A DNA stretch of 45,040 nucleotides, filler included, from Catajapyx aquilonaris (taxonomy: Eukaryota), in NCBI GenBank assembly GCA_000934665.2. It is 2 parts of 2 records of this genome, joined end to end, with 100 filler letters (N's around TTAATTAATTAA, not from the genome) between each part and the next. Parts side by side here need not be neighbours in the genome. Positions count along the whole stretch, not along the records: positions 22,573 to 45,040 come from JYFJ02005864.1; 1 more part is not named here. One strand, given 5' to 3'. Shown here piece after piece: positions 8,220-42,972 of the stretch. The stretch's first letter is position 1, and every line of letters begins with the position of its first letter. The notes under the pieces were generated by a model, which saw only the letters and a program-made list of their open reading frames with translations, did not search any database and was not told the origin of the DNA. The position numbers and the translations under genes are program-made.

Positions 8220-8715
8220 TAAATGTGCATAATAAATGTTTCAAATAGTCAGCAATATAAGTACTGTCAGATATATATATATATATATATTTTTTTTTGA
8301 GATCTTGGAACCTATGTCATTTACTTCTATAATTTTGTCTCGGTTTACGCCTTTTCTGCTCATTTCGCCACGTTGACTTAAAATTGCAAATGGAAATGGC
8401 CACCACCATGAAATCGCGGTCCTGCAATTGTTGCCGACGAAATGGCCACCACTCTCGCCCCCACCTCCCAATTTAGCGTGCCGAATAACCTGCTAATTAC
8501 ATACCTGCGTCGGGGTGTGCTTCTGGGAACAAACTAAGCAATTTTGCTGTCCCATAAACTATTCTCGCCCAGCACATGCGACATTCTCAGCATTACCTAT
8601 TCCACAACATAATACTTATACACCTTTAAAAATTGATTGCCCTTTCAGGTAGTGTGAATCGACATTGAGAAAAAGCAGTATAGTGTACGTGGCAAAATTC
8701 AGTTGCGTCGCAGCC

Positions 8716-10713
8716 ATGGAAACAGTTAAACTTGTGTTGTTGGACCTCCTGATGGCCAGTGTTGTTACTGCTGGGACGAATCATAACATATCTCTCATTG
8801 TGGAAAATAGTGAGGAAAGCCAAGGAATAGAACTGCTGGCAGAGCTGGTGATACATATTTTCCAAAGAGAGCACTTGAATTCGTGCTCACTGGTGGTGTC
8901 CACAGACTGGGATCCGTCAGAAGTGGCGACTGTCCCCATGGACAGACTGTTGATCGGACAGTCTGCCAACTACCTCCCTTCTCTCTCCGTGCTGATGAGG
9001 TCCTTTCCCCACTCCTTCAGAGACTACCCCTGGCTGACCAAGGAGGAACAGCTCCTGGACTTCAGGACTGTCCCTCCCTCCCTCCTGTCCAGACTCTGGT
9101 CTGGGACGTCCTGCACCTTCCACGTCCTCATGCCATCCATCCCTTCCTCGCTCCCACAGCTCCTCATCCACACAGCCTCTCTCGTCAAGGTGTCTCCGGG
9201 ACTGGATCGGTTCCTCGTACACTTCCCGTCAGACCAAGTGATTCACCGGGTGCTGATGTCACCACCTGTCAGTGCTCTCAGGCTGAGGGTGTCCACCAGA
9301 ATGGATTCGGGACAGCTTTTGGTGGAGACGGTCTGCAATTTTTGCGGAGGAGGAGGCCAGCAGGAGATCCGGACAGTGGGACACTACTGTGGTGGAAATC
9401 CGGGTAATGTAAAGGGCGTCTTCACTGGACGCGAATTGCACGCGAATGGAAAATCTGTGAGAGTTGGGATAATGCTTAACCTTGATATTGAAAAGGTCAG
9501 AAAGACTAAGAAGGTAGAAGGAGAAATGGCTCTTACTGCATATGAACGAGGATTCGTAATTGCAGAAGAATTAACACGAACACATTTAGTACCTACATTT
9601 ATCCCAGTCAAAGAGGCAAAATTCGACAGTAGAAGTGAAAACGGCTCTTGGGACGGGGTGACGGGTCATATTGTGGGAGATCTAGCTGATATAATTCCTT
9701 CCATCTTCATGTTCGACGAGTCTTTGTCGCTTCTTCTCACTACCTCACCTTATGTGGCTGCCTTTGGAACATTTGTGACCAGAAAGCCTAAAGGAATCGT
9801 AACTTGGTTGTTCATTTTCCAGCCATATGAATTGTCCTTTTGGATGGTGTTTTTGTTGTTCATCGTTATCTGTAGTTTATTCTTGTGCATTAATTCAAAC
9901 CGCAGCGGGGATACCTCAGTGAGTTCAAATTTCTCAAAGTCTTTGACTCTTGTGCTACGAGAAATGGTAGAGCAGCCGGAAAACTACTCCAGAAAAATGC
10001 CTCTTTCATTTGCTCTTGCATTTTGCCTGTTCTCGACAGTGATTATTTGCGGATACAAAGGAAAAGTAGTCTCATTTCTGACGTCACCTCCTCGGGAAAT
10101 AGTGCCTACCACTTTTCAGGAATTGGTAGACTCCAACTGGCGAATTGAAACTACCATAATTGAATACTTGATTTTGCAAATATTGGCATGTAACCTTAAA
10201 AACTCCGCTGCGAACAGGATACTGGAAACTGCAGTTATAGCGAAGAGTGTTCCAGATTGTTTAGACAAAACATATCAGCAACAGATAGCGTGCGGTGGAA
10301 TCAATAATTTACTTAACCTAGAAGTGTATCGATACAAAAGCAACGATGGGGAATCTCGAGTTCAGTTTGCTGAGGATAATATCTTTCCATCTTACACGGT
10401 CAATATTGCCTCGAGAGCAAATTCTGCAATGATTCAAGTAATGGAATCATCATTTGTCAGAGTTGTTAATGAAGCCAACCTTATTGACAAAATTTTAAAA
10501 GATGAGCTTTACATGAAGTTGTTGCACAATTTGAAAGAAATTATTGCCTTGGAAAATCGAAATTCACAAATCAAGTTTGCAGAAGAAATAGTAAACTTGT
10601 ACAAGTGTTCAGCAGTCTTTGAAATTTGGGTTTTAGGATTGGCAATCAGTTTTTTAGTGCTTGTTGTGGAAACCCTGAATCCGCAATGTTTCTGTCCAAA
10701 GTATTATTGGTAA
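8716..10713 (+). CDS. Divergent ionotropic receptor (IR; variant iGluR family chemoreceptor), intronless, ~665 aa
   Basis: Long ORF with first ATG at 8716 and a signal-peptide-like N-terminus (METVKLVLLDLLMASVVTAG). S1-lobe motif NGSWDGVTGHIVGDLADI, M1 region FIFQPYELSFWMVFLLFIVICSLF, M3 region YKGKVVSFLTSP..PTTFQELVDS, and a C-terminal TM segment (VFEIWVLGLAISFLVLVVE). Confidence 0.88.
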   Translation: METVKLVLLDLLMASVVTAGTNHNISLIVENSEESQGIELLAELVIHIFQREHLNSCSLVVSTDWDPSEVATVPMDRLLIGQSANYLPSLSVLMRSFPHSFRDYPWLTKEEQLLDFRTVPPSLLSRLWSGTSCTFHVLMPSIPSSLPQLLIHTASLVKVSPGLDRFLVHFPSDQVIHRVLMSPPVSALRLRVSTRMDSGQLLVETVCNFCGGGGQQEIRTVGHYCGGNPGNVKGVFTGRELHANGKSVRVGIMLNLDIEKVRKTKKVEGEMALTAYERGFVIAEELTRTHLVPTFIPVKEAKFDSRSENGSWDGVTGHIVGDLADIIPSIFMFDESLSLLLTTSPYVAAFGTFVTRKPKGIVTWLFIFQPYELSFWMVFLLFIVICSLFLCINSNRSGDTSVSSNFSKSLTLVLREMVEQPENYSRKMPLSFALAFCLFSTVIICGYKGKVVSFLTSPPREIVPTTFQELVDSNWRIETTIIEYLILQILACNLKNSAANRILETAVIAKSVPDCLDKTYQQQIACGGINNLLNLEVYRYKSNDGESRVQFAEDNIFPSYTVNIASRANSAMIQVMESSFVRVVNEANLIDKILKDELYMKLLHNLKEIIALENRNSQIKFAEEIVNLYKCSAVFEIWVLGLAISFLVLVVETLNPQCFCPKYYW

Positions 10714-21120: not shown

Positions 21121-22035
21121 CCCCTGCACATTCAACATGGCCAGTTCACATTGTTCAGTTGGCCTATTAGTGAATGATCCCTGCCATAAAACCAGTTATA
21201 CCAGTGTTGTGGGGCATGACCAACTTTTCCTCAACAGATGTGAGTTTCTCACTCATGTTGTCCAGGTTTTCCAGGTTATGTCCCTTCCCTAGTCGAAATT
21301 TTTCCATCTTCTTGTTACCTGCTTGATGTCTTGCATTCTTATTCAGGTTTATATAGGTTGTCTGTGTCTGCTGCCATACACTCTGCAAGTTAAACACGCC
21401 ATCAAATTGTCCTAATTCCTTGCATTACTGCTCTAGGCCCTTGTTGACGGTGACTTCATCCACAGCTTTATTTACCAGTACTACCCAGTCCTGGAAGTCA
21501 GAGTTGACGAGGAGATGCTGCTCCATGGCCTGTAATTTGGCACATGGAAACTGATACTTTGACTTACATTCTCTCTGCACCTAATCCACATGGCAGTAAA
21601 CATGATAATGTGCTCTCATGAACCTCATGACTGCAATATGAGTCTGCAACTGTTCCTCTCAAGCAGCACCCCAAATGGGAATATTAAAATTTTAAATGGC
21701 AAAATTCACATTTTCATTGGATCAAGCCTTGTACATCCATAGCTCCACATTGGCTCCACCACCCCTGATGGCATCTCTACCTTGCCGTTGGGAGCACAGT
21801 TCCCTGATGGCCCAGATAGCTATATCCCCAGAAGCTTCACCTGCTGGCAATCGCAATGTCACCCATGCAGAAAAAGGTCATTTTGTGGTAAGAGATAGAG
21901 AGAGACGGAAGTCTTTCCTCTCTTCATTTCTATCTCCACCTACCCCACATTTGTATCATTTAATAACCAGGTAACTAGAGTTGATCTCCTCACTCATAGA
22001 AAGACACAAAAATACCACCTTTCCCCATATTAATA

Positions 22036-22852
22036 TCTATATCTATAAATAAGGAAGTTTGTCAGATGTTTGTCCCTTATAGAAATCCGGGGAAGGCCCC
22101 TACACCGCCTTAAATTAGCATATCGGGGGTTACATTTTTCAAGGAATTTAATGCCGCATGTTTCAGCTTCCGAAAATGTACCTAACTCCCACAACACGCA
22201 TATTCCCGAATCTTCTCTCTTCTCGGGCCTTAACAATTAAATTACAACAATATATCAATTCAAATTCCCATGGAAATGCCCTTATGCAAGTTCAATACCT
22301 AGCAAATTAAACCATGGAGGAAGGAATACTGTGGAGGTGGGGCCCCCTATCCCACCCATTATGGAAAATTGTACCCCCCTTAATCTGGAACTTGGAGGAA
22401 GGAACGGTCCAAGATCTGGAACGGCGGCCATCTTTCTAGGCACAGAAACTTGGAGCTTGCTTGGAGGAATGANNNNNNNNNNNNNNNNNNNNNNNNNNNN
22501 NNNNNNNNNNNNNNNNTTAATTAATTAANNNNNNNNNNNNNNNNNNNNNNNNNNNNNNNNNNNNNNNNNNNNGCTTCTACATTCTACATTTACTTCTACA
22601 TTTACTGCACAACCTTCAATTTTTCATTACATACTTTTGCTGGATTTTGGAGGTGCATTGTGTATTACCATTACCTTACAATCTGACATCCGCAGTGTGT
22701 TGTTTGGACTTCCATGCACATGCAATATGCTCCATGTCACTGGTATGCCCACATTGTATAGCCATAATTATTGCAAAGGTTACTACTAAATCAATGAGTC
22801 ACTCCTATGGAAAAGTCTTTCATAACCCGAGCAACGCCGGGTATCCTGCTAG
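22036..22852 (+). mobile_element. Non-autonomous Helitron (5' TC ... hairpin-CTAG 3'), spanning the assembly gap
   Basis: A|TCTATATCTATAAATAAGG at 22036 and CCCGAGCAACGCCGGGTATCCTGCTAG|T ending at 22852, consistent with A/T insertion and no TSD. The two ends may belong to different copies joined across the gap. Confidence 0.65.
22473..22572. other. Artificial scaffold gap (44 N + TTAATTAATTAA + 44 N)
   Basis: 100-nt spacer whose central 12-mer has stops in all six frames; an assembly linker. Confidence 0.95.
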
Positions 22853-23206
22853 TTTGACATAATTGCATTACATAGATTTTATGAGATTATTGCAATGAAA
22901 AAATTGCAGTTGAGTAATTAAAAACTCCGGGTGAAGGGATGTACGCAGGTAGCACGATGAGTATCCAGGAAATATTCCCAGAGACGTTCTTGGTAATTGG
23001 ATGTCATGCGGATATTCCACAGACACCCACAAATCATGCAGGAATGGGATCCAGATCGTTATGGTGATTTACAAAATGAAATAAAATATATATTGTTTTC
23101 TTTTGCGAATCAGCATACCAGGACTATAATATGGTACATCAATATGCGACAAACAAACAAAAAAAAAATCAAAACTAAAGACCGTTACGTAATGAGGCAA
23201 ATATTA

Positions 23207-23294
23207 TACTTGAAGGGAATGTTAAAAATTCCAAGTTCCACCGGGTTAATTCTACCTTTATGTGGAGCTCATCATACTCAGTCCTCTAGAAGTA
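23207..23294 (-). promoter_or_regulatory. Eukaryotic SECIS element, form 2
   Basis: Minus strand reads ATGAT-GAGCTCCAC-AT-AAA-GGT-AGAATTA-ACC-CG-GTGGAACTT-GGAA. AUGA at 23275-23272, AAA 12 nt later (23259-23257), helix II GAGCTCCAC/GTGGAACTT (8/9 paired), 3-bp apical minihelix GGT/ACC, 3' core GGAA at 23232-23229, lower helix TACTT..AGAGGA/TCCCTT..AAGTA. Lies ~50 nt after the SELENOL stop. Confidence 0.88.
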
Positions 23295-23344
23295 AAAGAT
23301 ACGCCCGCATTACAATCAACAGCCCTACATAACGTCCTTAATCA

Positions 23345-24592
23345 TTACTGAAGGACTTTCATTATTTGATCTAGAGTGGGCCTATCAAAAGGATTTTCAG
23401 TCACGTGACAAAGACTAATCTTTCCATGGGCATCTACGATGACGTCAGCACCCATTTGCAGAAAATCATCCATGATGGCAGAATACTGAGGCATTGCCAC
23501 GGAACCCATCGTCTCGCTGTATTTTATGAGTCCATCTATCCGTACTGTCTGAAATGGTTTTTAATAAATGGCACTGGGTTAATTGTCATTTCATCTTACC
23601 ATGTGAAAGTACAATTCTATTTACCTTATAAATGGACCTTTCTAATCCAAGCATTCTGTACAGCTTCCTCTCTGGATCAATGTACAAGTCAAATGGGCAC
23701 TTGGTGTCTGAAAGCCATTGGAGCAGTCCCTCCCGATGCCCAAAGGACACAATCAGCACTGAGCAGCCAGCCTTATGGAGTTCATCCTGCAACAGTATTC
23801 ATGATGGTAATAATGGCGATAATCATTATCGACAACAATTGCATACCATATGTTGCTGGACCATGCTCACGTGCTGACGTCATGGTAATCAGCTGAGATG
23901 GCGCAGAAACAGTAAGAGGCAGTGCTTTTCTTTGCCAATTATGTCTGAGATTTGTTGGTGTTGTCCTGTGTTGAAGTTGGTAAGAAGCATGTCTAAAGGC
24001 AATTGATGTCCCTTTCGTAGAGGTGACTTCTGTGTGACTTCTCTTTTAAGTTTCGTATCCAGCTCTTTCAGAAACTCATCCCAAGTAGACTGAAAAATAT
24101 AGCATGTTTGGTAGTACATGTTGCAAATCTTCAAAATTCTGCTCTACCTCATGCTTTTTCATACACAAGCGAATACTTACATGTGCATCATACAGTTCAT
24201 CAATGGCATCCTTAACTTCCATAGAAGGATCTCTCTCCACAGCCACACGAACTGCATCGTTGAATGTCTTGACGCCAAATCTGATAACACGTGAAAAATT
24301 TCTGGGTGAATGCCTCCCAATTATTGTAATATTACTATTGAACAATGTGAATCTCTTTAAGAAATGTGCGACTGATTGAGTGATGAATGCTGTAAGCCTA
24401 CACTTACTTTTCAAAAATATTAATGTAGATTTTCACGAAATCTAAAAATTGCGGAAATGGCTTTCCATCTGCAGGGAACAATATTGCTGGATCTCCTCGA
24501 CATTCCTGTCGCGCCTTTTCCACCACACCTAGAAATGCTTCAGTTGCTGAGGTGAATACACCTGCAGTTGGTGAGGATGCTGCCACTGCCAT
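23345..24592 (-). CDS. SELENOL: Selenoprotein L (thioredoxin/AhpC-TSA-like fold, UxxU motif), 297 aa; exons 24592-24408, 24280-24181, 24089-23847, 23786-23625, 23548-23345
   Basis: All four introns are GT-AG and phase-consistent (185+100+243+162+204 = 894 nt). Exon 3 reads ...HCLLLFLRHLS-TGA-L-P-TGA-RQHV (TGAs at 23891-23889 and 23882-23880). Downstream exons continue with family-like sequence (VLIVSFG..GLLQWL..T.CPFDLYIDPERKLY.MLGL.RS; DDFLQMGADVIVD..GKI...H...NPFDRPTLDQI). SECIS present in the 3' UTR. Confidence 0.93.
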
Positions 24593-25055
24593 GGTGCTCC
24601 TTCCTTCGTCTAATTCAAGCAGCTGACAACATTTATCTCTTGGCCTTTCTTTAAAAGCAATCTCAAGGCCAATCCACTTGACTTGTTTACCCTAGCAGAT
24701 GATTTCAAGGCTATGGCTCTCACAGTGATAGAAACGCACACAATTCTGTGATAATGTTGGAAGTACTAGTGACTTTGCTACGATATCTAGAGCTCAGAGG
24801 AATAATAAGGATACTTTAAAGTGGTTTGAATTAGATTTCTGGATAAATCAGATTAGTGCTGATTTTCCGTATGTGAAGGGTGTTTCTCTGCCCAAGGCGT
24901 TCATAAATGTTCAACATATCATCACCTAATGACTTACAACACATTTCTCTGCAATTTCTGAATTTCTTTATTGATAGCCATGTCCCAAAAAGTAGAATGA
25001 ACTACAGTAATATATGAAAAGGAAACGTAAAAATTTAAAGCCAGCTGACGGCACT

Positions 25056-28000
25056 TCACACGATGACAGCCCAGGGTGTAAAAGTGCTCTTGTCAGGAAG
25101 AGGTGGCACCTGGAAGTGCAAGTATTGTCATAAGTACATGCTGATAATTGCAACAACTACTTTTAATAGTATCAAGCAGTTACCTTTGCTGTCAAATGAT
25201 CAGGGCAGGCCATCCTAATCCTCTCGGCAGTGGCAGGTGAATCGAGCCTGAAGTGTCCTTTGCCTACACCTGCATCGTCTCTAGCAGCTCTCAGAGCATC
25301 CTTCAAGGCGAAGAACACTGAAGAAGCAAGGAACAGGGGTGGTTCCCCAACTGCCTTTGACGACATCACTGCTCTGGGATTTGGGGCTCCCCTCAGCAAG
25401 GAAACATTAAACTCCTGAGGCACATCTGCAAATCCAGGAATCTTGTATGCTCCAGGTCCTCTTGTCAGCAAATGGCCCTTTGGAGAATACAGCAGCTCTT
25501 CCAGTGTGAACAAGCCCATTCCCTGGACAAAGGCACCCTCCACCTGCCCAATGTCAATGGCAGGGTTCATGCTCTCCCCAACATCCATCACTATGTCCGT
25601 CTTGAGGACCTGGTGGTCTCCTGTGAGACAATCCACTTCTACCTCACAGAAGGCTGCTCCAAAGCAGAAGTAATCGAACGGATTGCCACTGTTTGTTTCC
25701 CAGTTGTATCCTATATCAGGTGTCCTGAAATTGCAACGAGGATATTTTTAAAAAGTGCATCAAAACGGAGTGTATAAAATTTTAAAATGTCGATCCCCAA
25801 CCTGTAGAATCCGGTGACAGCAAGAGACACTCTCTCCATGTATGCCTCGGACACCCAATCTTCCCAAGTTCCTTTAGGATTGGCTGCAATGAAGGGCTCC
25901 AAACGCTCCATCAGAATCTCACAAGCATTCTGTAAAAATGTTTGATGACACAACGTTGACCACAATCTGCACATTTATAGTAATTCCAAGTGTTCCACAG
26001 AATTTCTGAACCCATATTATACAGCTTGAGGATATGACTGACCTGAACGGCCATTCCATTGAGATCTGAGCCAGAGCTGGCGGCAGTGGCAGATGTGTTC
26101 GGTACTCTGTCTGTTGCAGTCTCTGCCACATGTATCCTCTCAGGTGGCACACGCAAAACCCTGCAGGCCACCTGCACCATTTTTGTGTGTAACCCTTGGC
26201 CCATCTCTATGCCTCCATGACTAAGCAAAACGGAACCATCTCGGTAAACAAGAAGAAGAGCACCAGCTTGGTTCAGAAACTTTGCCGTAAAAGCGATGCC
26301 AAACGTGGTAGGGATCATGGCAATGCCCCTCTTCTTCCAGCGATTCTCACTAAAAAGGAGCAGTAAATGACGGATTATAGCAAAATATCAGTACGCCTCA
26401 TAGCCGTCATTTACCAGTTAAACTGATCCACATCCCTCCTGCGCTGGTCATAATTGGCCCTCTGGTAGCATTCCTCCCAGCATCTCCTCACCGTGCATCT
26501 CTCCAGCAGCTGATGGTAATGAGTTTCCTGGCCCTCCTGATAAAGGTTCAGCTGACGAACCAGAGCGGGCTCCACTCCAAGACGGGCTGCCACCTGGTCC
26601 ATCATATTCTCCCCTATAAACATTCCCTGAGGACCTCCAAAACCACGGAATGCAGTGTTTGAAGGCAGGTTGGTTCGACAGCATGCACCAGTCACCCTAA
26701 TGTTGGGAATCATGTAGGCATTCTGCACATGGAAGACTGCCCTCTCCAACACTGAGATGGACAGATCAGTAGTGTTTCCAGCATTGGCATAGAGTTGTAC
26801 ATCCAAGGCAGTAATGCGTCCGTCACGAGTGAAGCCAGCTCGGTACCTCCCCATGAAAGGATGTCTGCCGCCAGTGATAGCCATGTCTTCATCACGATCC
26901 AGCATGCAGCGAATTGGACGTTTATATCTGCAAGGGAAATATGTCAGTAGTTTTTGTGGCCAATTACATCACATGTACAACTTACTTGTTGACTGCTACT
27001 GCCATGGGCAATGCCAGCAGTGCAAACCTGCTCTCTTTCCCTCCAAAACCACCACCAATCCTCTTGATTCTGACATACACCTTATTTGCAGGTAAGCCTA
27101 ACGCATGAGATATTAGGTGCTGCAGCTCGCTTGGGTGCTGTGTGGAGCACACAACCTCCAACTCCTCTTCCCTCGGCACCACCATGCAGGCATGAGTCTC
27201 CAAATAGAAGTGCTCCTGGCCCCCCATTCGTACCTCTCCTTCTACTTCACCATCAGACTCTGCCCATCCTTGCTGCAGACTACCCCTCTCTATGCAACGA
27301 TGGAAATCCTCGTAGAATGACTTTTTCTCAACAGCCTCTTCTATGGTCAAGATAGTTGGGTGGATATCCTCATAGTCCACTTGAACTAGGCGGGCTGCAC
27401 GAAGAGCCAGGTCACGATCCTCTGCTATCACTGCACCAACGACCTGCCCGACACAAGTCACTGTTTCGGAGGCAAAGATCTCATCATCCTGGAAGATTGG
27501 GCCAGTACGGTTGCTCTCTGGCATCAGATCAGCAGCACTCACGAAGCCAACCACACCTTCCAAGGAAAGTGCTTTGGAAGCATCCACCTAGATTGAAGCA
27601 TGGGTGTTAACAATGCATTTCAAAACAGCTCAGCATAATATCCAGCATATCGGCTTAGACAGTTACAGACGAATTCATCGAACCTGCAAGACCCGAGCGT
27701 GTGCCCTGGTGCTAGTGACAAGAGCCATTGCTAACTCTTTCTCAAGGCGGGGAAAATCATCACAGTAAAGTGCCTCTCCAGTGGCCTGCTTGAGACCAGA
27801 CATGTGGACAAGGGGTCTTCCTATTGGGTCCCGTTCTGGCTGCCCTTTTGGAACTATCTGGTACATTTGAGAGCTTTTGGGAATATCAGTGTGAAGGGGG
27901 GAAGAAGCAGACATCTCCCTGGCTGAAGGGAGGATTGTGATGGTTGGAAAGTGCGGGTTGAGAGCTTTGCGGATATGATGATGGAATTTGAAAAAGAAGC

Positions 28001-31000
28001 TGAGAACGAGGGAACGGCGGTAGGCAACCATGCCTCCTGGGACTGACGGTGGTAGGGGAAGCTCTTCCACAAGGCTGCTGCAAACATCTTCAAGCAGAGA
28101 TTCATCCCATGACCTGCAACAAGCAAGTTCAGTCAATAATAGTCCAATCGTAAAATCAAAGTATTATTCAGTTTCACAGATTGTTCAGTCTACGGTGTAC
28201 CTATAATACTCAACATATGTACGAGCAATTGTCATTTACATATTCAAGGATCAAATTCATTATTACCTTCCCACAGCCAATTTAGCAGTCTTGAGTGCCA
28301 TGACGGCTGTGGGAGCCATCCCTCCAAAGGCCATGCTGAGCTCTTTCACCTTGGTCGTCCCAGGCTGGAAAACTACTCTCATCCCTGCATTTACAATGGC
28401 AATGTCATCATCACGACGCCTTGCCTGCTTGTAGCCCACAAAGTATTCGTTCTCTTGCATGTAAGGGAGGAACACATTTTCCAGCACCTCTTCCTGACGG
28501 ACAACGTTTCTGCGATATCCAGTGAAGAAAGTGCTGTCCAGAGGAACCTGCCTCTGTCCACCTGGGATGACAACAAAATGGATTTACTGTGTGGATCTTT
28601 TATGAACAATGAGTCGTGCAGTGAATATGCATACAATAAATGTGTGCACTCATTATAACTGGTGACTTCAGTGTCACCTGCAATTTTTTTTATAACGAAC
28701 CACTTTGAATATGGGTTCTTACTTTTACTGCGAAGAGTGAGTAGGCAGCCTGCAGCCATCATCAAAGGGATGAGGTCCGAAATGGGGCTTCCAGTCATTA
28801 TGTTGCCACCTATGCAACCAGCATTACGAATCTGCTTCCCAGCAAACCAGTGCAGCATGTCCACTATGGCGGACATCAACCAAGTCTTGCGCTCTGTAGA
28901 AACAACCAAAACAATTAAACTCATATAATAACTTAAAGGCAAGTGAATGGAATTAAGTCATAATAATGGAGATGGCAGTGTACTGTACCTGGTTCTCTAG
29001 CTATGGCCACTTTGAGTTCCTCCTCCATGTCGGACAAGCTGACTGAAGCTCCAACAGTAATTCCATGGCCATTGTGATCAACTCGGTTCAATTCCTTCAC
29101 TTCTCCAGGGTAGATTAAAACTGGATAGTAACAGTTCTTGAACTTCACTTCCACTCCTACAAACATGACATAAAACAATAATAATAATTAGAGGGCCTGT
29201 GTAGCAACAATAATGATTTAATTACAAAAATTAGTATTTAATTACAAAAATTAGGAGTTTCAACATTTCCTTAACTCACCTATTTCTGTGTTGCCCACTA
29301 CAATCTTTGCCTGAGGGTTCTTCTCTTTCAGATCAAGCAACTGGTCCATGGAAATTGGTCTAAACCACGCAACTCGTTTCCCATGTATGGACAAGTACTC
29401 CTCATCCAAATGAGACTGCAGCTGCAGCTCTGGAGGAAAGATTGGCTCCTGAGAAGGATCCAATGGCAAGTAGTGGGAAGGGTCAAACAGATGTCGCCCG
29501 ATCCCATCCTTCCTGTCCTCTTCCAGTGCCTTCTTGCAGCACCCATCCGCCTTGCCGCATCCACCACCACCACAGCATCCCCCATTCATCATTGGCGTTG
29601 GGTAACCGTTGCTCAGTCCCTCAGACGTCAGGGTCCTGTATCCTTCCAGAATGGGGCGGTAACCAGTGCAACGGCAAAGGTTTCCTGCATGGCGGCCAGA
29701 TGTCAAAGCATGCCTCCCAAATGATTAATTCAAGATACGCTGAGACCCACCTTGAAAGGCCACCTCAACCTCCTTCATGGAGGGCACAGGCTGATTCCTG
29801 AGGAGGGTGTACATGGACATGACTATCCCAGGAGTGCAGAAGCCACACTGGGATCCGTGGCTCTTGGCTATTCGTTCCTGGGCCGGATGCATGCCCTTGG
29901 CCACGCTGCCAATGCCTTCCACTGTGGTGATTGCAGTGCCATGGGCAGCACATAATGGGAACAGGCATGCATTCACTGCTATGTGGCTGCTAAGCGCTAA
30001 GGAACCCTCACTGCTGGCTCGCTAATGTTTCCTATGTTACTTATAAAGTCCAAGGCTTCAGATGACGAATTGAAATTTTCAAGAAATAACCAGTTAAAAA
30101 ATAATTATGATTTTGTATCTCGTATGTTTATAATAGGTCTTTAAATATCAGAGTGGGCTCATTCATTTAACAATATATTATTTGAATTATTACTTCTCAG
30201 CAGTTAATGATGGTATTTATGTTAAACAACAACAACAAGTTGCAACAGCAAAGGATACACAACTTTTTTCTTCTTTCGATCCATTTTTGAAAGCATCACT
30301 GTGCAGGCGCCACATCCACCTTCACCACATCCCAGCTTTGTACCAAACAGGTGCACTGTTCTCTCGATTAAGGAATAATTACATATAACCATGTTGTCAC
30401 CATGTTATGCCTAAGAATCAACTAAGAGATTGGAGATAAATGAACAAAGGAAGCAAAAACAATAGATTACCATTCTCCACACATTTCCTAGATAAGAAAG
30501 ATCGTTATTCCAGGAAAAAACCAGACCTGGATAATTGTCCTTTTACCAAGAAAACTGTCAATGCGTAAGCACTGCTTAATAGCAGGTGTACCCTACCTAC
30601 TTTCCTGGTCTCAAACATTGGGTATTTTTTTTAAACTTTCTTACCCATGTCCTGCCAAATGCTGTGAGAGAAAAAAAACTAATGTAGTTGGAAGATATCA
30701 AAGTTGGGCAATAGTCTTACCGAGTAATTTTTTTAAATGCACTTGAGAGAGTGAAATGAAAGTTCAACAAGTGTCAATTGTGTAAGTCGTTAAATGAGGA
30801 AAGATGTCTGGCAATATTCCAAGGTAATGATGGCACATAAAGAAGTCGCATTTGTGAGTGATCTTTGAACATGTCATGGTGTCCTTGAACAATGCCAGTA
30901 AACTTCAATCACAAGAAATTTCATAGACGAAAAAAAAAGTCATCTCTGACATTGTATCTTTCTTTGAACATACAGTACACTCAAAATCTGCCACTGAGAG

Positions 31001-32227: not shown

Positions 32228-35200
32228 TCATACAGTGATAGACCATGGCGTAAAAGTGCCCTTGTCTGGAACAGGCGGCACCTAAAAGACCACATAATGA
32301 ATTTACATAAGCAGTTACATAAAAGCAAAGATGACTGTCTCATTTTGATTTTTTTTTGGACACAAAGATCTAGAATTCAGAAGATTGAAGCAACGTTAGC
32401 AACACTGTGTTACCTTTGCTGTCAGATGATCACAACATGCCATTCTAATTCGCTCCACAGTGGCAGGTGAATCAAGCCTGAAGTGACCTCGGCCAACCCC
32501 AGCATCTTCTCTAGCTGCCTTCGCAGCCTCCTTAATGGCGAAAAAGACAGAGGACGACAGAAATAGCGGTGGTTCCCCAACTGCCTTCGACGACATCACT
32601 GCTCTGGGATTGGGAGCTCCCCTCAGCAAGGCCACGTTGAACTCCTTCGGCATATCTCCAAACCCCGGTACTTTGTACATCCCAGGTCCCCTTGTCAGAA
32701 GCTCCCCTTTTGGTGAATACAGCAGCTCTTCCAGTGTAAACAGGCCCATTCCCTGGACAAAGGCACCCTCCACCTGCCCAATGTCAATGGCAGGATTCAG
32801 GCTCTCCCCAACGTCCATCACTATGTCTGTCTTAATAACTTGATGGTCTCCAGTGAGACAATCAACCTCCACTTCAGAACAGGCTGCTCCAAAGCAGAAA
32901 TAATTGCATGGCTTGCCAGTCTTAGTATCCCAGCTGTAGCCGATGTCAGGTGTTCTGCAGAGAATAGGGTGGTATGGGAGCAACTATTGACATTTCCTTA
33001 CTCAATCATATAACGTCGCCTGCATCTTACTGCCAGATATAATTAATTTACCCGTAGAATCCAGTTGTTGCCAACGACACTCGATCCAAGTATGCCTGCC
33101 TCACCCAATCTTCCCAACTTCCTTTTGGGTCCGACTTCATGTACGGTTCCAGACGCTTCATTAATGCCTCACAAGCATTCTACAAAATATCAACATTTCA
33201 AGTGTAGGTAAATAATGAGAGTCAATTTTAAATCAGTCTGACCTGCACTGCCATTCCATTAAGATCTGAGCCCACACTGGCTGCTGTAGATGTTGTATTG
33301 GGGACTTTGTCTGTTGCAGTCTCAGCCACGTAAATCTTTTCAGGGGGGACCTGGAGAACCCTGCTGGCCACTTGCACCATCTTTGTGTGCAATCCTTGGC
33401 CCATTTCAACACCACCGTGGTTCAGCAGAATTGAACCATCTCGGTAAACAAGAAGTAGAGCCCCAGCCTGGTTCAAGAATCGACTTGAGAAACCTATGCC
33501 ATATAGCGTAGGGATCAGGGCTATTCCTCGCTTCTTCCAGCGATGCTCCCTGCGGTACGACAAGTAACATTATGTAGAAAATTCTACATGTTTAACAATT
33601 CAAATCCTTACTGATTGAACTGCTCCACATCCATCCTCCGCTGGTCATATTTAGCCATCTGATAGCACTCGTCCCAGCAACTCTTTAGTGTACATCTTTC
33701 CAGAACTTGTCCGTAAGGCATCTCCTGCCCTTCTTCATACAAATGTAGCTGTCGAATTCTCACTGGGTCTATTCCTAGTTCTGCTGCCACATGGTCCATC
33801 ATGGTCTCCGCTATGAACATGGCTTGGGGTCCACCAAAAGCTCTAAATGCGGTGTTTGATGGCAGATTGGTTCGACAAGACACTACATCGACCCTAATAT
33901 TAGGAAACATGTAAGCATTCTGTGCATCAAAAATGGCCTTCTGTACAACAGGTGAAGAGAGGTCAGCAGTATTGCCAGCATTTGAATACATGTGAACTTC
34001 CAAAGCGGTGATTCGTCCCTCATGAGTGAAACCAACGTGGTACTTTCCCAAAAAGGGGTGCCTACCACCAGTAATGCACATGTCTTCATCACGGTCAAGC
34101 ATGCAGCGAACTGGACATTTATACCTGCAGAAAGAGAAGGAAACTACCATTATACAAAAGCCTAGTTTGTACGACTTACACAATTAATCATGACCATAAC
34201 GGGCACGAACACTGATACAATTCATGGGAGGTGCGTTAAAGGCACAGCAACTCACTTATAAGCAGCCACAGCAACAGGTAAAGCCAGCACTGTACATCTG
34301 GTCTCCTTTCCTCCAAACCCTCCTCCAATCCTCTTGACTTTTACATACACCTTGTTGGTAGGCATCCGCAGCACTTGAGAGACAAGTTGTTGCAGCAGGG
34401 TTGGATTCTGAGTGGAGCATGTGATTTCCATCTCATCTTCCCTCGGCACCACAAAGCAGGCTTGAGTCTCCAAGTAGAAGTGCTCCTGCCCCCCTATCCG
34501 CACCTCCCCTTCCACCTCCCGGTCTGAATCTGCCCAACCCTGCTGCATGCAGCCTCTCTCTATGAAGCGAGAAGAGTCTCCTAAAAACATCTTGTGCTCA
34601 ATGGCTTCCTCGATGGTCAAGATCGTTGGATGAATGTCCTCGTAATCCACATGCACTATTCGAGCAGCACGACGAGCCAGATCACGGTCACAAGCCAGTA
34701 CTGCACCTATGACCTGGCCTACACAGGTCACAGTCTCAGAGGCAAAGATCTCATCGTTTGAGAAGGTAGGAGCAGTGTTGTTGTTCTCTGGAGCCAGGTC
34801 TGCAGCACTGACGAAGCCAACCACGCCTTCCAGGGAAAGGGCTTCTGAGGGGTCCACCTGGGTGTATACATGTGTTGAGCATTAGATCTGATTTAAATAA
34901 ACAGTGATATAAGCACATCCTTGATGACATACCTTCAGGATGTGAGCGTGTGCCCTGGTGCTAGTGACAAGAGCCAGTGCTAACTCTTTCTCCAGACGGG
35001 GAAAGTCATCGCAATAAAGTGCCTCTCCGGTGGCTTGCTTGAGACCTGACATGTGGACAAGGGGTCTTCCTATCGGGTCCCACTCTGGCTGTCCTTGTGG
35101 AACTATCTGGTACAGCTGAGAGCTTTTGGGAATGTCTAAGTGAAGGGGAGAAGAGGCAGACATTTCCCTGGAGGGTGGGAGGGTGGTGATGGTAGTTAGG

Positions 35201-38066
35201 TGTGAGCTGAGGACTTTGCAGACGTGAAGATGGAACTTGAAAAAGAAGCTGAGAACAAGTGACTGACGGTAGGCGACCATCCCTCCTGGAACTGAAGGCT
35301 CAAGGGGGAACTCCTCCACCAGACTGGAGCATACGTCCTCAAGGAGAGATTTGTCCCATGCCCTGTAATTGATAAGTTCTGCAAGATACTTGGCGGTAAA
35401 GAAACTCCACAAGATGCACAGTATATCCTGACCACTAACATTGTCTTGATATTTGTACATGTAGTACAGTACTTACCTTCCCACAGCCAATTTAGCAGTC
35501 TTGAGTGCCATGACGGCTGTGGGAGCCATCCCTCCAAAGGCCATGCTGAGCTCTTTCACCTTGGTCGTCCCAGGCTGGAAAACTACTCTCATCCCTGCAT
35601 TTACAATGGCAATGTCATCATCACGACGCCTTGCCTGCTTGTAGCCCATGAAGTATTCGTTCTCTTGCATGTAAGGGAGGAACACATTTTCCAGCACCTC
35701 TTCCGGACGGACAACGTTTCTGCGATATCCAGTGAAGAAAGTGCTGTCCAGAGAAACCTGCCTCTGTCCACCTGGGATGAAAATAAAAATGGATTTACTG
35801 TGTGTATCTTTTATGAACAATGAGTCGTGCAGTGATTATGCATACAATAAATGTGTGCACTTATTATAACAAAGTGACTTCAGTGTCACCTGCAAATTTT
35901 TTCATAACGAACCACTTTGAATATGGGTTCTTACTTTTACTACGAAGAGTGAGTAGGCAGCCTGCAGCCATCATCAAAGGGATGAGGTCCGAAATGGGGC
36001 TTCCGGTCATTATGTTTCCTCCTATGCAACCAGCATTACGAATCTGCTTCCCAGCAAACCAGTGCAGCATGTCCACTATGGCGGACATCAACCAAGTCTT
36101 GTGCTCTGTAGAAAAAACCAAAACAATTAAACTATGAAGAAAATTTCTGTATCAAAAGTCCTAAGAATGGAGATGGCAGTACGTGCTGTACCTGGTTCTC
36201 TAGCTATGGCCGCTTTGAGTTCTTCCTCCATGTCGGAGAGGCTGACTGAAGCTCCAACAGTAATTCCATGGCCATTGTGATCAACTCGGTTCAATTCCTT
36301 CACTTCTCCAGAGTGGATTAAAACAGGATAGTAACAGTTCTTGAACTTCACTTCCACACCTACAAACATGACATACGTAGAGCAATAGTCAGAGCAAATA
36401 TAATTGGACGGCTTCACTAGCAACAATTAGGTTGCAAAAAGCACGCAGTTTCAACATTTCCTTCTCACCTATTTCTGTGTTGCCCACTACAATCTTTGCC
36501 TGAGGGTTCTTCTCTTTCAGATCAAGCAACTGGTCCATGGAAATGGGTCTAAACCATGCAACTCGTTTCCCATGTATGGACAAGTACTCCTCATCCAAAT
36601 GAGACTGCAGCTGCAGCTCTGGAGGAAAGATTGGCTCCTGAGAAGGATCCAATGGCAAGTAGTGGGAAGGGTCAAACAGATGTCGCCCGATCCCATCCTT
36701 CCTGTCCTCTTCCAGTGCCTTCTTGCAGCACCCATCCGCCTTGCCGCATCCACCACCACCACAGCATCCCCCATTCATCATTGGCGTTGGGTAACCGTTG
36801 CTCAGTCCCTCAGACGTCAGGGTCCTGTATCCTTCCAGAATGGGGCGGTAACCAGTGCAACGGCAAAGGTTTCCTGCATGGCGGCCAGATGTCAAAGCAT
36901 GCCTCCCAAATGATTAATTCAAGATACGCTGAGACCCACCTTGAAAGGCCACCTCAACCTCCTTCATGGAGGGCACAGGCTGATTCCTGAGGAGGGTGTA
37001 CATGGACATGACTATCCCAGGAGTGCAGAAGCCACACTGGGATCCGTGGCTCTTGGCTATTCGTTCCTGGGCCGGATGCATGCCCTTGGCCACACTGCCA
37101 ATGCCTTCCACTGTGGTGATTGCAGTGCCATGGGCAGCACATAATGGGAACAGGCATGCATTCACTGCTATGTGGCTGCCAAAGAGATAAAGAGGTGAGT
37201 TAATTTGTTGGTCACAGGACTTCCTTATTACGAAAAATCTATTTTGTCATTTCCTTTGCTCGTTACTGTCAATTTTGTTATAACCAATGTTCCAAGAAAT
37301 AACATCATTAACATGCATTAATATGTAACTTTTTTCACAATGATCAAAAGTGACTGAATGTTAAAAGAATACATACACAATTACGTTCTTCCGGCGATCA
37401 ATTTTCGACATCATCACAGTGCAGGCTCCACATCCACCTTCTGCACAGCCAAGTTTTGTACCATACAAGTTTACTATTGTAATGGTTAAGAAATTTTCTT
37501 TGAAATGGAACAGAACTGTGTTGCTAGATAATAAATTGACAAGAAACAATTTAAATCTACACTACACCAATGATTTTTTAAATAGAAATTGTGGAAATAT
37601 AGTTTCCGAGTAAACTCTGGATTTACATTAGGGCCTACTGTAACACTACAAATGTCATAAGGAAAATTGAAATTGCATTTGGCAGTATCACTTTATCGTT
37701 ACTATTGACAAGCTTTCTAGTTAATCGGCAGAAGATAGTAATGTCCTCGGAACTTAATAAATCAAGGCCAAATGTTATTGATTCCTGAGAAGTTCTAAAG
37801 CTACCATGAGGCAGACACTCTTATTGTTGTTCACTTATGCTACAAAATCAGAAACATGGAAGTGCAGTAATGCAAAACACTGCCAATTTTCAAAATTCCC
37901 TGCATGAACTAATTTTACACATCTTCGGTAAATACTTGTCACTAAATCAAAATGCATTAAGGATACATTTAGTGCGCAGATACTGCAGCAATGTCCATTC
38001 CGGCTCCACATGTTCATCCTCCACCTTCTTTCCATTGACATAAAACACTAGCTTGTTACTGCTCAT
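32228..38066 (-). CDS. XDH: Xanthine dehydrogenase-like paralogue, copy A (divergent substrate pocket)
   Basis: Starts [15 protein letters not shown]. Same exon structure and motifs as copy B (exon 1 100 nt, exon 2 97 nt). Ends [17 protein letters not shown]. Moco domain has VVQKAIF and AFRAFGGPQ in place of VLERAVF and AFRGFGGPQ. Confidence 0.93.
37474..37966 (-). other. U12-type (minor) intron 1 of XDH-A
   Basis: Donor GTATCCTTA (37966-37958); branch site TTTCTTAAC (37493-37485) 11 nt before the 3' end. Confidence 0.88.
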
Positions 38067-39457: not shown

Positions 39458-40626
39458 TCAGCAGTCCTTTTTTAATGTGGACATAAAATTATCCAGTTCG
39501 TCCGATCCGCTTTGGTCATCCCCGTTTTCCATGGCGTCTTCTTCGTCGTCGTCTTGCTCGAAGTATTTCTCCTCCGCCTCCCTGTCCAGGGCGTCCATGT
39601 CGTCCAATCCGGCGTCGCTGTCCACCTTTCCGTAATCAAAGTCCTTGTCCTTACCCATCAGGAAGCTCTGATGCATTGCGGACACATACTCTTGCCTGAA
39701 CAGCATCTTTTCCTCCTCCGTGATTTCAGTCTGGACATCCATCTCGTCAAACCCTGGATCTGAATCGGAATCTGAGTCCCTCTCTTCCACATTGTCCTCG
39801 CACTCTTCCTGCCACCTCTCCCTCCTCTCCAGTTCCTTCCTATCTATATGCTCCAGGAGGATATGAGCAAGGCTGTTTGAGGTTCTGACCTCCGCTCTCA
39901 TTTGTAGATCAGCCTCTTCCTTTTCCTCAGGCGTCAGGTATCGCCCCACAAGCTGCGTGTACAAGTGAGGGTTTCTCCGCCGCATCTCGGGGACGCTGAA
40001 GTACGGGGAGTTTGAGTCCAACATGTTTTGTAGGGCACGAAACCGCCGGTTTTTCACTCTCACGTTGCTGGAGTTGACGGATAAACTGCTGCTAATGTAA
40101 TTGCATTATGGTTAGTAATTGTTTAACATTATGATCTCACGTGTGTATACCTGCATCCTGGAGCGGTCGGTGCATTCGCTTGCAGCTCTTTGACCCAAAA
40201 GTCCACCTCGTAGTCTCCCCTGCAGGGATCAAACACTGAGAGCAACTCAGTGGGCAAGAACTTTCCAAACCTGGCTAGGAACTGTGCCGGCCTGCAGTCA
40301 AACAGCTGCCCTGCAATCCGAGCCTTCTCCTTCAAGCTGAGATCCGGCTCATCTCTCTGCTGGCTGCGGAAGAAGCCGTCGCTCAGGGCAGCCGCTCTGA
40401 TGGCCCTGGCCCTTGGGTCAGTCGGTGGAGGCAACTCAGACTCATCCGGGGCTGGATGAGGAACCGGCTGGATTGTAGTGGTGGAAACAGTCTCAGTGCT
40501 GCTGCTGTCAGGTATGGTTGGAGGGCTGCAGGTTCGTCCTGACGGTTCTTGTCGGTTGCTGGCCGATTCGCAGTCGTCGTCGTACTCGCCCCACAGACGC
40601 CTGGACTTCTTCAATCCGCCTGACAT
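39458..40626 (-). CDS. CCDC97: Coiled-coil domain-containing protein 97 (DUF2052); exons 40626-40151 and 40085-39458
   Basis: Motifs FRSQQRDEPDLSLKEK, PAQFLARFG, DYEVDF, VKNRRFRAL, YFS..EMRRRNP.LY.QLVGRY, MHQSFLMGKDKDFDYGKVD, EEKYFE. AATAAA just after the stop (39447-39442). Confidence 0.9.
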
Positions 40627-41315
40627 AACCCAATGTTTGGAAAAACGAGCCGAAAGACGTCGGTTTTGCGTTTCAGCGACGATTCGCAAGCGCCATTTTG
40701 AACCACAATGTTGCCAATCTCAACAGGGGTGCCAATTGATAGGTATGTACTGTACTGTACGGTACTGTATAAATGTATATTTATTTGATATTTATGTTAC
40801 TTATGTACATTTACATGTGTATTTAAGACACTTCAAACACTCAAATCAAATTAGCTGTGAATGCCAGAAGCACTGAAAAGACAAACATATGGAGCGGGCG
40901 CATTAGAGGTACAGTGCTGGACATTGGCAGTCCCTATGTTTACTATAGTAAACATTTAGGGACTGCTACAATGTCCAGCATTGTGCATTGTACCAGTACT
41001 ATGACAGAAAATGTGATACCATTGATATGGGTTTATTTAACAAAATGGATACAAACTTCGGGACGTTAGTCACGATCATTCACGAGTAAGAGCTAGTATT
41101 TTTTTTTTTTTAAATACCCCATTATCAGCCCTTTAGGCTTTATTAGGGGGGGATTTCTCCCAATTTTTTTGTCTGGAACTCTTTCCATTTTTACTATACT
41201 TTTCATCGGAATTGAAGCAAGGATAGGTAAGGAAGGAAGCGGCTGTGGCGTATAATTACGGTAACGACCCCAGAATTATCCTGCGGTGACCATGGGAAAC
41301 CACAGAAAACCATGA

Positions 41316-42635
41316 TCACACCATATCACACTGTGTCACACCATACTTGGCCATAAACTCTTCTTCCTGCATTCTCTTACCTGTGCTTAGACGATGGTAA
41401 TATAACACCATAAAGGCCACGCCAATAAAAAATGCCAGGAAAGCACATACAAACAAGAGGGTGTCGTACCATCTGTGTTCGTACAGTTGCACATACCAAC
41501 ATATGAGCAGTCCTGCATTCGTCAAGAAATATACAACATACGACACACCATGCTTCCACGTTGGGATATCATCGTCCAAATCGGTGCAGCAAAAAATTAA
41601 CATAAATCCCTTGGAAGTGTTCCAGAGGATCCAATTCAGGCACCTGTTAGTGCAGCCTCCTTCCATCTGCCACATAATCCAACATGTCATGACCAACCAA
41701 TGGCCTCCGCACATTATGACCAGTAATCCTGGTAGTACTACGCCAAAGAGGGCAAGTGCGATAAGTCTCATGGCCAAGACCCCCAGGAACCCAAAGAACT
41801 GCAAGGCTGTTGCACTCCACGTGAAGTTTCTGTAGTTCGTGAGGAAATAATGCCTGCTTCGGTGATAAGATGCAACAGACCATGCCAGGCTCAGCAGGGA
41901 TATTGCAAGCCCAATGCCGAGCCCAACACGTTTGTAAAAGTCGTCATCACCTGTGTGGTCCGCCTGCAATGGTGCATGTTCTGCGTTAGACATAATTATA
42001 CCAGCGTGCACACGCAAAGAACCAACTCTTACCTTGTAAATATACAAGTGTAACACAAACTGCGGTCCAGATTCCATGAAGGCTTCAAACAACCTGAGAG
42101 ACGCAGCAGCAGAATCTTCATAGACCATCAGGGCGAAGAAAACCACCTTTTCTTTTCTGTTTGCCGCCTTCCTGTTCTTCCAACCATACCAGAAGGACTC
42201 GCAATATCTCGGAATTGGTGCCAACAGAAACACCATACAAACTCCTCTGCAGAGCTGTCTTGTTCGACTGACAGGGGGCAGATATTCCTTGTCCAGATCC
42301 AGCTGGTACCAGTATAAGCTCATAACGGACATGACCATGCCGGGGACTAGAGCGAAGATCAATGTAAGGGCATAGTACCAGGTCTTGTCCTGCTGGTAAA
42401 ACTTGTATACCAGGTACATGTCCATGCCAAGATCACCAAGGTACAGGAAGAGTGAGAGAAGAGTCAAAACCAGGCTCCAACCACTCACATTCACTGACTC
42501 GTCATCCGGCTTCTCCACACCATTCGACCCTGGCTGCGTCCCATTTGTAGGACCTTTCTCTTCAGCAGGGGGTTGTCCAAGTTCAATACTCAGTGTCCTC
42601 CGAAAAAGCCTACCACAGATTTTGCTCAACCGCAT
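41316..42635 (-). CDS. XK-related protein (Xkr scramblase family); probable 69-nt intron at 42032-41964
   Basis: Multi-TM ORF with YLGDLGMDMYLVYKFY, SLYWY, LRLFEAFMESGPQFVLHLYI, SLLSLAWSVASYHR, RLIALALF, HWLVMTCWI, FMVLYY. The true start may lie further upstream. Confidence 0.88.
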   Translation of the reverse strand: MRLSKICGRLFRRTLSIELGQPPAEEKGPTNGTQPGSNGVEKPDDESVNVSGWSLVLTLLSLFLYLGDLGMDMYLVYKFYQQDKTWYYALTLIFALVPGMVMSVMSLYWYQLDLDKEYLPPVSRTRQLCRGVCMVFLLAPIPRYCESFWYGWKNRKAANRKEKVVFFALMVYEDSAAASLRLFEAFMESGPQFVLHLYIYKVRVGSLRVHAGIIMSNAEHAPLQADHTGDDDFYKRVGLGIGLAISLLSLAWSVASYHRSRHYFLTNYRNFTWSATALQFFGFLGVLAMRLIALALFGVVLPGLLVIMCGGHWLVMTCWIMWQMEGGCTNRCLNWILWNTSKGFMLIFCCTDLDDDIPTWKHGVSYVVYFLTNAGLLICWYVQLYEHRWYDTLLFVCAFLAFFIGVAFMVLYYHRLSTGKRMQEEEFMAKYGVTQCDMV

Positions 42636-42972
42636 GATGAGCAGGTTTCTCCAACCTTTTAAGTGCTAACAGTAACGTAAACTAGGGCAATCAACCAACA
42701 AATTTAAACTAAAGGTAACAGCAATGGCATCTTCTCCCTGCTCCCTCTCGTACGACCCTTTACAGCGATGCCAATGGTCCGGTACCAGGTATAGAAACAA
42801 GACATTGTTATTATTATTAGTTTAACTCGTAATTTTAATTCAGACACTTCAAACAATGGAATATAGTAGCAATCCCTATGGCAAAGTTGTTCATAAATTT
42901 TTGTAAGGAATGTTTCGGAAAAGTGTTTCTCCCATGTTTCCCCCCAGTTGGTGACAATAAGCTGCCGAAAAC

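Follow-up and report, generated by a model that had tools for sequence, protein, structure and literature searches.

Whether two closely spaced in-frame TGA codons are genuine stops or selenocysteine (Sec, U) codons is the question raised by a locus of Catajapyx aquilonaris (assembly GCA_000934665.2). The stretch of DNA analysed, referred to as the window, is 45,040 nucleotides (nt) long and consists of two parts joined by 100 filler letters, with positions 22,573 to 45,040 derived from JYFJ02005864.1. The original prediction placed on its minus strand a hidden gene for selenoprotein L (SelL, SELENOL) carrying two UGA-Sec codons in a U-L-P-U arrangement. Our analysis indicates that the locus is very probably an intact, expressed five-exon gene encoding a SelL/SELENOL-family protein of 297 residues, in which both UGAs are read as Sec.

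The predicted gene model consisted of five phase-consistent GT-AG exons, and every coordinate was verified on the minus strand from 24592 to 23345 (Table 1). The spliced coding sequence comprised 894 nt, corresponding to 297 codons and a TAA stop. All four introns (127, 91, 60, and 76 nt) were bounded by GT..AG, with a pyrimidine-rich tract preceding the AG. A product of 297 amino acids (aa) had been proposed to require read-through of both TGAs, and no other internal stop was found in frame: frame 0 contained two stops only, both of them TGA, while the other frames contained 16 and 20. Past the TGAs, the frame remained open and homologous for 132 further codons across three exons, and the motif read LLLFLRHLS-U-LP-U-RQHVSMV in the spliced protein. 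An antisense open reading frame (ORF) at 23375-23896 on the plus strand matched no Pfam family.

Table 1 Coordinates of the SelL gene, its 3' region and other features of the window.
Feature	Position	Strand	Description
Exon 1	24592-24408	-	185 nt; residues 1-61 and two bases of codon 62
Start ATG of exon 1	24592	-	Context caccATGg
Exon 2	24280-24181	-	100 nt; residues 62-95
Exon 3	24089-23847	-	243 nt; residues 96-176; start of thioredoxin-fold domain and U-L-P-U redox motif
First in-frame TGA, Sec162 (U162)	23891-23889	-	Aligned to first Cys of bacterial C-L-P-C
Second in-frame TGA, Sec165 (U165)	23882-23880	-	Aligned to second Cys of bacterial C-L-P-C
Exon 4	23786-23625	-	162 nt; residues 177-230
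Exon 5, coding part	23548-23345	-	204 nt; residues 231-297 and TAA stop 23347-23345
3' untranslated region (3'UTR), at least 426 nt	23344-22919	-	As far as contig 1 of run X1 extends
SECIS-like element	23283-23217	-	Rfam SECIS_1 match; starts 62 nt past the TAA stop
Aldehyde oxidase/xanthine dehydrogenase-type tandem copies	25172-29800, 32396-37000	-	Exon-sized domain frames
U6atac-like match	26936-27049	-	20.5 bits (gathering score 33), E 0.53; within aldehyde oxidase gene
CCDC97-like C-terminal domain	39458-40105	-	PF09747, E 8.6e-33; closed by TGA
Hairpin resembling several microRNA precursor families	40901-40992	both	Best match mir-883, 30.2 bits, E 0.029
XK-related protein, single open frame	41316-42665	-	PF09815, E 2.9e-66; closed by TGA
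686-codon open frame	8653-10713	+	Weak Lig_chan match, 20.6 bits (cut-off 30.8), E 4.3e-4

Splicing was assessed with run X1, the sole public run found to contain the stretch, which is available as assembled contigs with the library type unrecorded. Its contigs were mapped onto positions 22900-24900. Three contigs were identical to the window, without a differing letter or a gap, apart from omitting 23549-23624, 23786-23846 (a cut movable by one), 24090-24180, and 24281-24407, which are the four predicted introns. These skipped segments read CT..AC on the plus strand and hence GT..AG on the gene strand. Contig 3 spanned 24408-24597 and joined 24280 to 24408 and 24089 to 24181, contig 1 was unbroken from 23548 to 22919, and both TGAs were covered and retained in contigs 2 and 3. 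The TGA-bearing segment is consequently not spliced out, and the four anticipated junctions are all used in these contigs. Since no X1 contig covered any of the four introns within 22900-24900, the run has the character of assembled RNA. On the evidence of these contigs, the gene is real, spliced, and transcribed. Two 44-N runs (22473-22516 and 22529-22572), taken as assembly gaps, lie about 350-450 nt past the end of contig 1, and they could affect the true 3' end of the SelL gene.

The encoded protein was then compared with known families exon by exon. Exon 4 alone matched Pfam AhpC-TSA_2 (PF13911) with 45.3 bits (E 1.3e-11), passing the gathering threshold of 27 bits. Against NCBIfam, the model NF040769 ('SelL-related redox protein') was the sole match of exons 3, 4, and 5, which aligned to it in colinear order at profile positions 11-50 (35.6 bits), 53-103 (38.7 bits), and 119-172 (32.4 bits) of 173. 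Neither exons 1 and 2 nor the initial 39 residues of exon 3 matched a protein family, and the first ~134 residues thus form an extension without a known family. In a comparison with protein clusters, exon 4 was linked to generic AhpC/TSA_2 clusters only, and exon 1 to unnamed clusters only, with few shared features. A word-index search limited to longer proteins returned no match with exon 3 or exon 4 alone as the query.

Bacterial relatives of the domain were found to carry cysteines at the two TGA positions. A scan of metagenome contigs yielded L001, a bacterial gene of high GC content (141.5 bits to NF040769), whose product, P0018, reads FLRHLA-C-LP-C-REH, with TGC as the Cys codons. A scan of prokaryote genomes yielded four loci (L002-L005), including two clear relatives: one in a Thermoleophilaceae metagenome-assembled genome (MAG) (L002, protein P0019; 149.2 bits to NF040769) and one in a Planctomycetaceae MAG (L003), both with C-L-P-C. 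The C-L-P-C motif was thus present at the aligned positions in three of three bacterial relatives. The remaining two loci were dropped as chance pattern matches: the match of L004 falls in a cytochrome-type frame that looks unrelated, and L005 contains no ORF of at least 80 aa. In L003 (1411-1836), the family resemblance extended to about ...PFPVVSDPARG, after which the open frame diverged; this loss of resemblance may be due to a frameshift in the MAG.

When the spliced window protein was aligned with P0018, residues 153-296 were matched with 43 of 145 positions identical (E 2e-20 in an 11-sequence database). The alignment crossed exons 3, 4, and 5 directly and placed U162 and U165 on the two cysteines. 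As a control, a profile built from the three bacterial proteins only was searched against all six-frame pieces of the 45 kb window (1,283-1,450 pieces). Its top three matches were the pieces containing exons 3, 4, and 5, at profile positions 4-54, 56-105, and 132-169, with an E-value of 8.4e-6 for exon 5. With TGA treated as a stop, the match of exon 3 broke off at profile position 39 with a score of 8.8 bits (E 0.079), whereas reading through TGA raised the score to 34.3 bits (E 1.1e-9), a gain of 25.5 bits. By this bacteria-only profile, the pattern of exons and TGAs exceeds chance. The predicted continuation of coding sequence into two further exons was likewise borne out, with exons 4 and 5 being colinear both on NF040769 and on the bacteria-only profile.

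The TGAs had been assigned to the CxxC position of a thioredoxin-like fold, and U162 and U165 aligned to C44 and C47 of P0019. To locate these residues in three dimensions, an AlphaFold model was made for P0019, the bacterial relative and not the window's own protein, from a seven-row alignment (mean predicted local distance difference test score, pLDDT, 81.0; predicted template modelling score, pTM, 0.77). In the model, a strand at residues 34-39 (TLIVFL) leads into R-H-L-A-C44, and a helix at residues 45-56 starts with L45 and holds C47 in its first turn. As modelled, C44 and C47 form the classical CxxC site of a thioredoxin fold. A Foldseek search of the model against the PDB retrieved the peroxiredoxins AhpE, Tpx, and BCP/PrxQ as well as the CxxC thiol-disulfide oxidoreductase ResA, together with the C44S/C47S mutant of human prostamide/prostaglandin F synthase (PRXL2B, of the PRXL2 family; 22% identity), all at E-values of about 1e-8 to 1e-7. 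The nearest solved protein by sequence was ResA (E 2.7e-4), and a PDB sequence search with P0018 returned nothing at E <=1.

Decoding of UGA as Sec in eukaryotes would call for a selenocysteine insertion sequence (SECIS) in the 3'UTR, and a SECIS-like element was present there, within the part of the 3'UTR that is transcribed in X1 contig 1 (Table 1). Its AUGA lies at 23275-23272, an apical AAA at 23259-23257, 12 nt after the core, and the opposing GA at 23231-23230. Helix II contains 9 of 10 pairs and is followed by a small apical stem, as in a type-2-like element, and the minimum free energy fold contained both the helix and the apical stem. In the mRNA, 478 nt separate the first UGA from the SECIS-like core downstream of it. 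A pattern search (ATGA with AA at a distance of 10-13 nt and GA at one of 35-80 nt, 9 or more of 10 helix pairs being formed) gave a single match on both strands of the window (90 kb), at this very site. By chance, the pattern is expected 0.46 times per window on average (100 Markov-resampled windows) and about 0.002 times within the 426-nt UTR.

It could be argued that the TGAs are real stops, which would leave a 161-residue product without the redox domain, or a decaying pseudogene whose transcript is subject to nonsense-mediated decay. Two observations lend this some support: the SECIS match scores below threshold, and TGA is a normal stop in the window, where it closes three of the five long domain-bearing frames of neighbouring genes. 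The latter observation also means that the TGAs of this gene are exceptions and not the sign of a variant genetic code. However, the frame stays open and homologous over three exons for 132 more codons, both TGAs coincide exactly with the CxxC cysteines of the relatives, the splice sites are intact with the spliced form present in X1, and the SECIS-like element sits where it would be needed. Moreover, an apparent double TGA-type reading recurs in nine of 12 divergent homologues described below, and decay would not conserve such a feature. Real stops are accordingly regarded as highly improbable.

These homologues were identified from public protein sequences. A phmmer search with exon 3 against 1.84 billion representatives gave three matches at E <=0.001, two of which were real; the top representative match, P0005 (2305 aa), was spurious, being a repeat protein without the matched stretch. 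A profile search gave eight matches among 27 candidates, and with the members of their 90% clusters a set of 12 sequences was obtained (P0006-P0017). All 12 are unnamed eukaryote-type homologues of 64-158 residues, and they have in common the WDxFLxxxD motif that is found at the start of exon 3. Tryptophan occupied both Sec positions in 9 of the 12 fragments (LLRHFA-W-LP-W-R[QKHD]H), three fragments terminated exactly at ...LLRHFA, before the first Sec position, and Cys was observed at either position in none of the 12. The terminating P0009 and P0010 belong to the same 90% cluster as the W-reading P0006 and P0008. Because W-readers and terminating members occur in one cluster, the W residues are best explained as TGA codons translated via a TGA=Trp table in automatic gene calling. 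On this explanation, the double TGA-type reading would recur in nine of 12 homologues that share only 26-38% identity, and homologues would carry either Cys (three of three bacterial relatives) or a TGA-type reading (eukaryote-type fragments) at both positions.

In six of the 12 fragments, the similarity stopped eight residues past the motif His, with V (a GTN codon) as the next residue, which suggests that an intron at the position of window intron 3 is common to these six. P0016 and P0017 continue without an intron into the counterpart of window exon 4. The expectation that standard pipelines would truncate genes of this kind was also borne out among the relatives, all 12 being unnamed stubs that are either cut at the first TGA or read with W. 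On contigs of this kind, public gene calling apparently either changes to the TGA=Trp table or truncates the product, and a whole selenoprotein family is hidden as a result.

The W residues bear on another possibility, in which near-cognate tRNAs insert one of the standard amino acids Trp, Cys, or Arg at the UGAs instead of Sec. Taken at face value, public homologues with W at both positions would favour it. Nevertheless, P0009 and P0010 end where P0006 and P0008 of the same 90% cluster read W, which makes W most probably an artefact of gene calling with code 4; in addition, Trp is no substitute for a redox Cys, the 3'UTR contains a SECIS-like element, and TGA terminates neighbouring genes. 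Insertion of a standard amino acid is therefore barely credible, and decoding of both UGAs as Sec is retained.

The assignment to SelL rests on AhpC-TSA_2 in exon 4, colinearity with NF040769, the UxxU motif, and the SECIS-like element in the 3'UTR. The predicted identity of the gene as a selenoprotein L gene with U-L-P-U is thereby supported at the level of the SelL family; the link runs indirectly through the 'SelL-related' NF040769, and orthology to fish SELENOL is presumed. The founding description of selenoprotein L, by Shchedrina et al. in 2007, reportedly dealt with fishes and aquatic invertebrates, and it is said to have separated SelL from distant SelL-like proteins. The window protein might accordingly be a SelL-like member, namely an AhpC/TSA_2 'SelL-related' protein with UxxU that is not orthologous to vertebrate SELENOL, with the decoding being the same. 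The only named model matched is that of a bacterial 'SelL-related redox protein', with a summed score below its cut-off, the matches of the phmmer search with exon 3 were unnamed fragments, none tied to fish SELENOL, and no named SELENOL sequence was among the matches of any homologue search. The absence of named matches is, however, attributable to the shortness of the exon queries. Furthermore, UxxU in this fold is a hallmark of SelL according to excerpts of PMC13134290 and PMC2397514, and the 12 eukaryote-type fragments carry the same motif, six of them apparently with the same intron position after exon 3. A prawn unigene whose best match is Ciona Selenoprotein L (excerpt of PMC4411767) also indicates that crustaceans have recognisable SelL. 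A non-orthologous SelL-like protein is thus considered unlikely, and membership of SelL/SELENOL proper is preferred.

Several points weigh against the interpretation of the locus as a Sec-decoding SELENOL gene. The SECIS_1 match scored 20.1 bits, which is below the Rfam gathering score of 35, and its E-value was 2 when 22000-25500 was searched with 4,227 families (about 5e-4 for this family alone). An Rfam scan of the whole window at gathering thresholds gave no match, and the whole-window scan by E-value listed no SECIS, a 20-bit match exceeding E 10 at that size. The SECIS region was no stabler than shuffled sequences (z = +0.50), 140 of 200 of which folded at least as well. The W-for-TGA explanation of the fragments was derived from their protein sequences, and the word search for homologues was biased to W forms, as two of its three query rows carried W. 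Run X1 is not labelled as RNA (its kind is given as '?'), and its source animal may be the one that was sequenced for the assembly. Finally, the scores of the three exons to NF040769, obtained separately, sum to 106.7 bits, less than the whole-protein cut-off of 120, and this model describes bacterial Cys forms and not animal SELENOL.

The spliced mRNA keeps two UGAs three codons apart, where bacterial relatives carry the cysteines of C-L-P-C; in a peroxiredoxin-like (AhpC/TSA_2) thioredoxin fold, these sites lie where strand beta-1 ends and in the opening turn of helix alpha-1. Under the preferred interpretation, the single SECIS in the 3'UTR would recruit SBP2 and eEFSec with Sec-tRNA, so that both UGAs are decoded as Sec, as is reported for fish SelL. 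The resulting U-L-P-U pair is predicted to cycle between diselenol and diselenide and may constitute a redox centre of very low potential, comparable to the CxxC of ResA or PRXL2B. In that case, SelL would function as an oxidoreductase of low potential.

As for the genomic context, no tRNA gene was found in the window. A tandem aldehyde oxidase/xanthine dehydrogenase pair lies on the same strand as the SelL gene, and ~580 nt separate the final exon of its downstream copy from the SelL start. The domains Fer2_2, FAD_binding_5, CO_deh_flav_C, Ald_Xan_dh_C, MoCoBD_1, and MoCoBD_2 follow one another identically in both copies of this pair, and the U6atac-like match within the aldehyde oxidase gene is probably due to chance. 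The hairpin at 40901-40992, which lies between the CCDC97-like and XK-related genes, matched microRNA families far below their gathering scores in all cases; either a palindromic hairpin or an unclassified microRNA may account for it. The open frame on the plus strand at 8653-10713 may encode a divergent ionotropic receptor.

SelL is already known from many aquatic animals, and the present gene adds a member and an annotation fix but no new mechanism. In Table 1 of PMC3473315, as excerpted, SelL is listed for sponge, Trichoplax, sea anemone, annelid, and amphioxus and is missing from the limpet Lottia. Ciona SelL is known from expressed sequence tags (excerpt of PMC2874816), and among vertebrates SelL is confined to fishes according to the excerpted text of PMC3316567 and PMC13134290. 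Excerpts of the former also state that one SECIS serves both Sec residues in SelL, and those of PMC2397514 and PMC13134290 describe the two Sec residues as able to form a diselenide. SelL is presented as the sole animal family reported with a natural diselenide in its redox motif in excerpts of PMC13134290 and of a preprint (bioRxiv 10.1101/2025.10.02.680026), and the latter describes the Selenoprotein L orthogroup as being almost exclusively from aquatic animals and of unknown function. For arthropods, SelL is not among the 20 selenoproteins listed for the centipede Strigamia (PMC4244043, Table S26), and the Macrobrachium unigene mentioned above, which is labelled Selenoprotein L, has Ciona as its best match (excerpt of PMC4411767). 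No publication with a SelL gene model from the genome of an arthropod was found in the literature, the species list of the preprint's orthogroup not being covered.

The practical value of the present model lies in the corrected annotation. With its exon structure, transcript support, and SECIS candidate, the gene is a data point for the loss of selenoproteins in terrestrial as compared with aquatic animals, and the unnamed stubs to which all 12 relatives found have been reduced provide a concrete case of how such genes are lost from databases. A wider reading, which we put forward tentatively and with some doubt, is that animal SELENOL is far more widespread and uniform than annotated. The signature R-H-[FL]-[AS]-U-L-P-U-R, with U presumed in the relatives, is almost invariant across at least eight unnamed eukaryote-type clusters, in which the apparent common intron position and the WDxFL N-terminal extension also recur. 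If this reading is true and the host is an arthropod, the gene would be the first arthropod SELENOL supported by both genome and transcript. Aquatic arthropods would then have kept the family and centipedes and insects lost it, and SELENOL would cleanly mark how diselenide chemistry disappeared in the move from water to land.

Compared with known systems, the window gene has in common with the SelL/SELENOL of fishes and aquatic invertebrates, so far as the excerpted descriptions go, a UxxU motif in a peroxiredoxin-like thioredoxin fold and its occurrence as an animal gene. Known SelL, in those descriptions, has one SECIS in the 3'UTR, whereas the window has one SECIS-like candidate with a SECIS_1 score of 20.1 bits, and the orthology of the window gene is presumed through the 'SelL-related' NF040769. 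Prokaryotic peroxiredoxin-like (Prx-like) selenoproteins with UxxU, such as PrxL.1 of Lokiarchaeota, are likewise said to bear two Sec residues at the CxxC position of a Prx-like fold. The SECIS of prokaryotes is located in or beside the coding region. With PRXL2B (PDB 9usa) and ResA (PDB 1st9, 2h1b), the fold appears from the model to be common, with the CxxC at the junction of strand beta-1 and helix alpha-1, but the identity is 14-22%, and those proteins use Cys and have known substrates. The bacterial NF040769 proteins share the same domain over its full length (exons 3-5 cover profile positions 11-172 of 173) with 30% identity over 145 residues, the window reading FLRHLS-U-LP-U-RQH where they read FLRHLA-C-LP-C-REH. 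These bacterial proteins use Cys and have neither introns nor an N-terminal extension, whereas the window gene has TGA at both positions, is interrupted by introns, and carries the extension.

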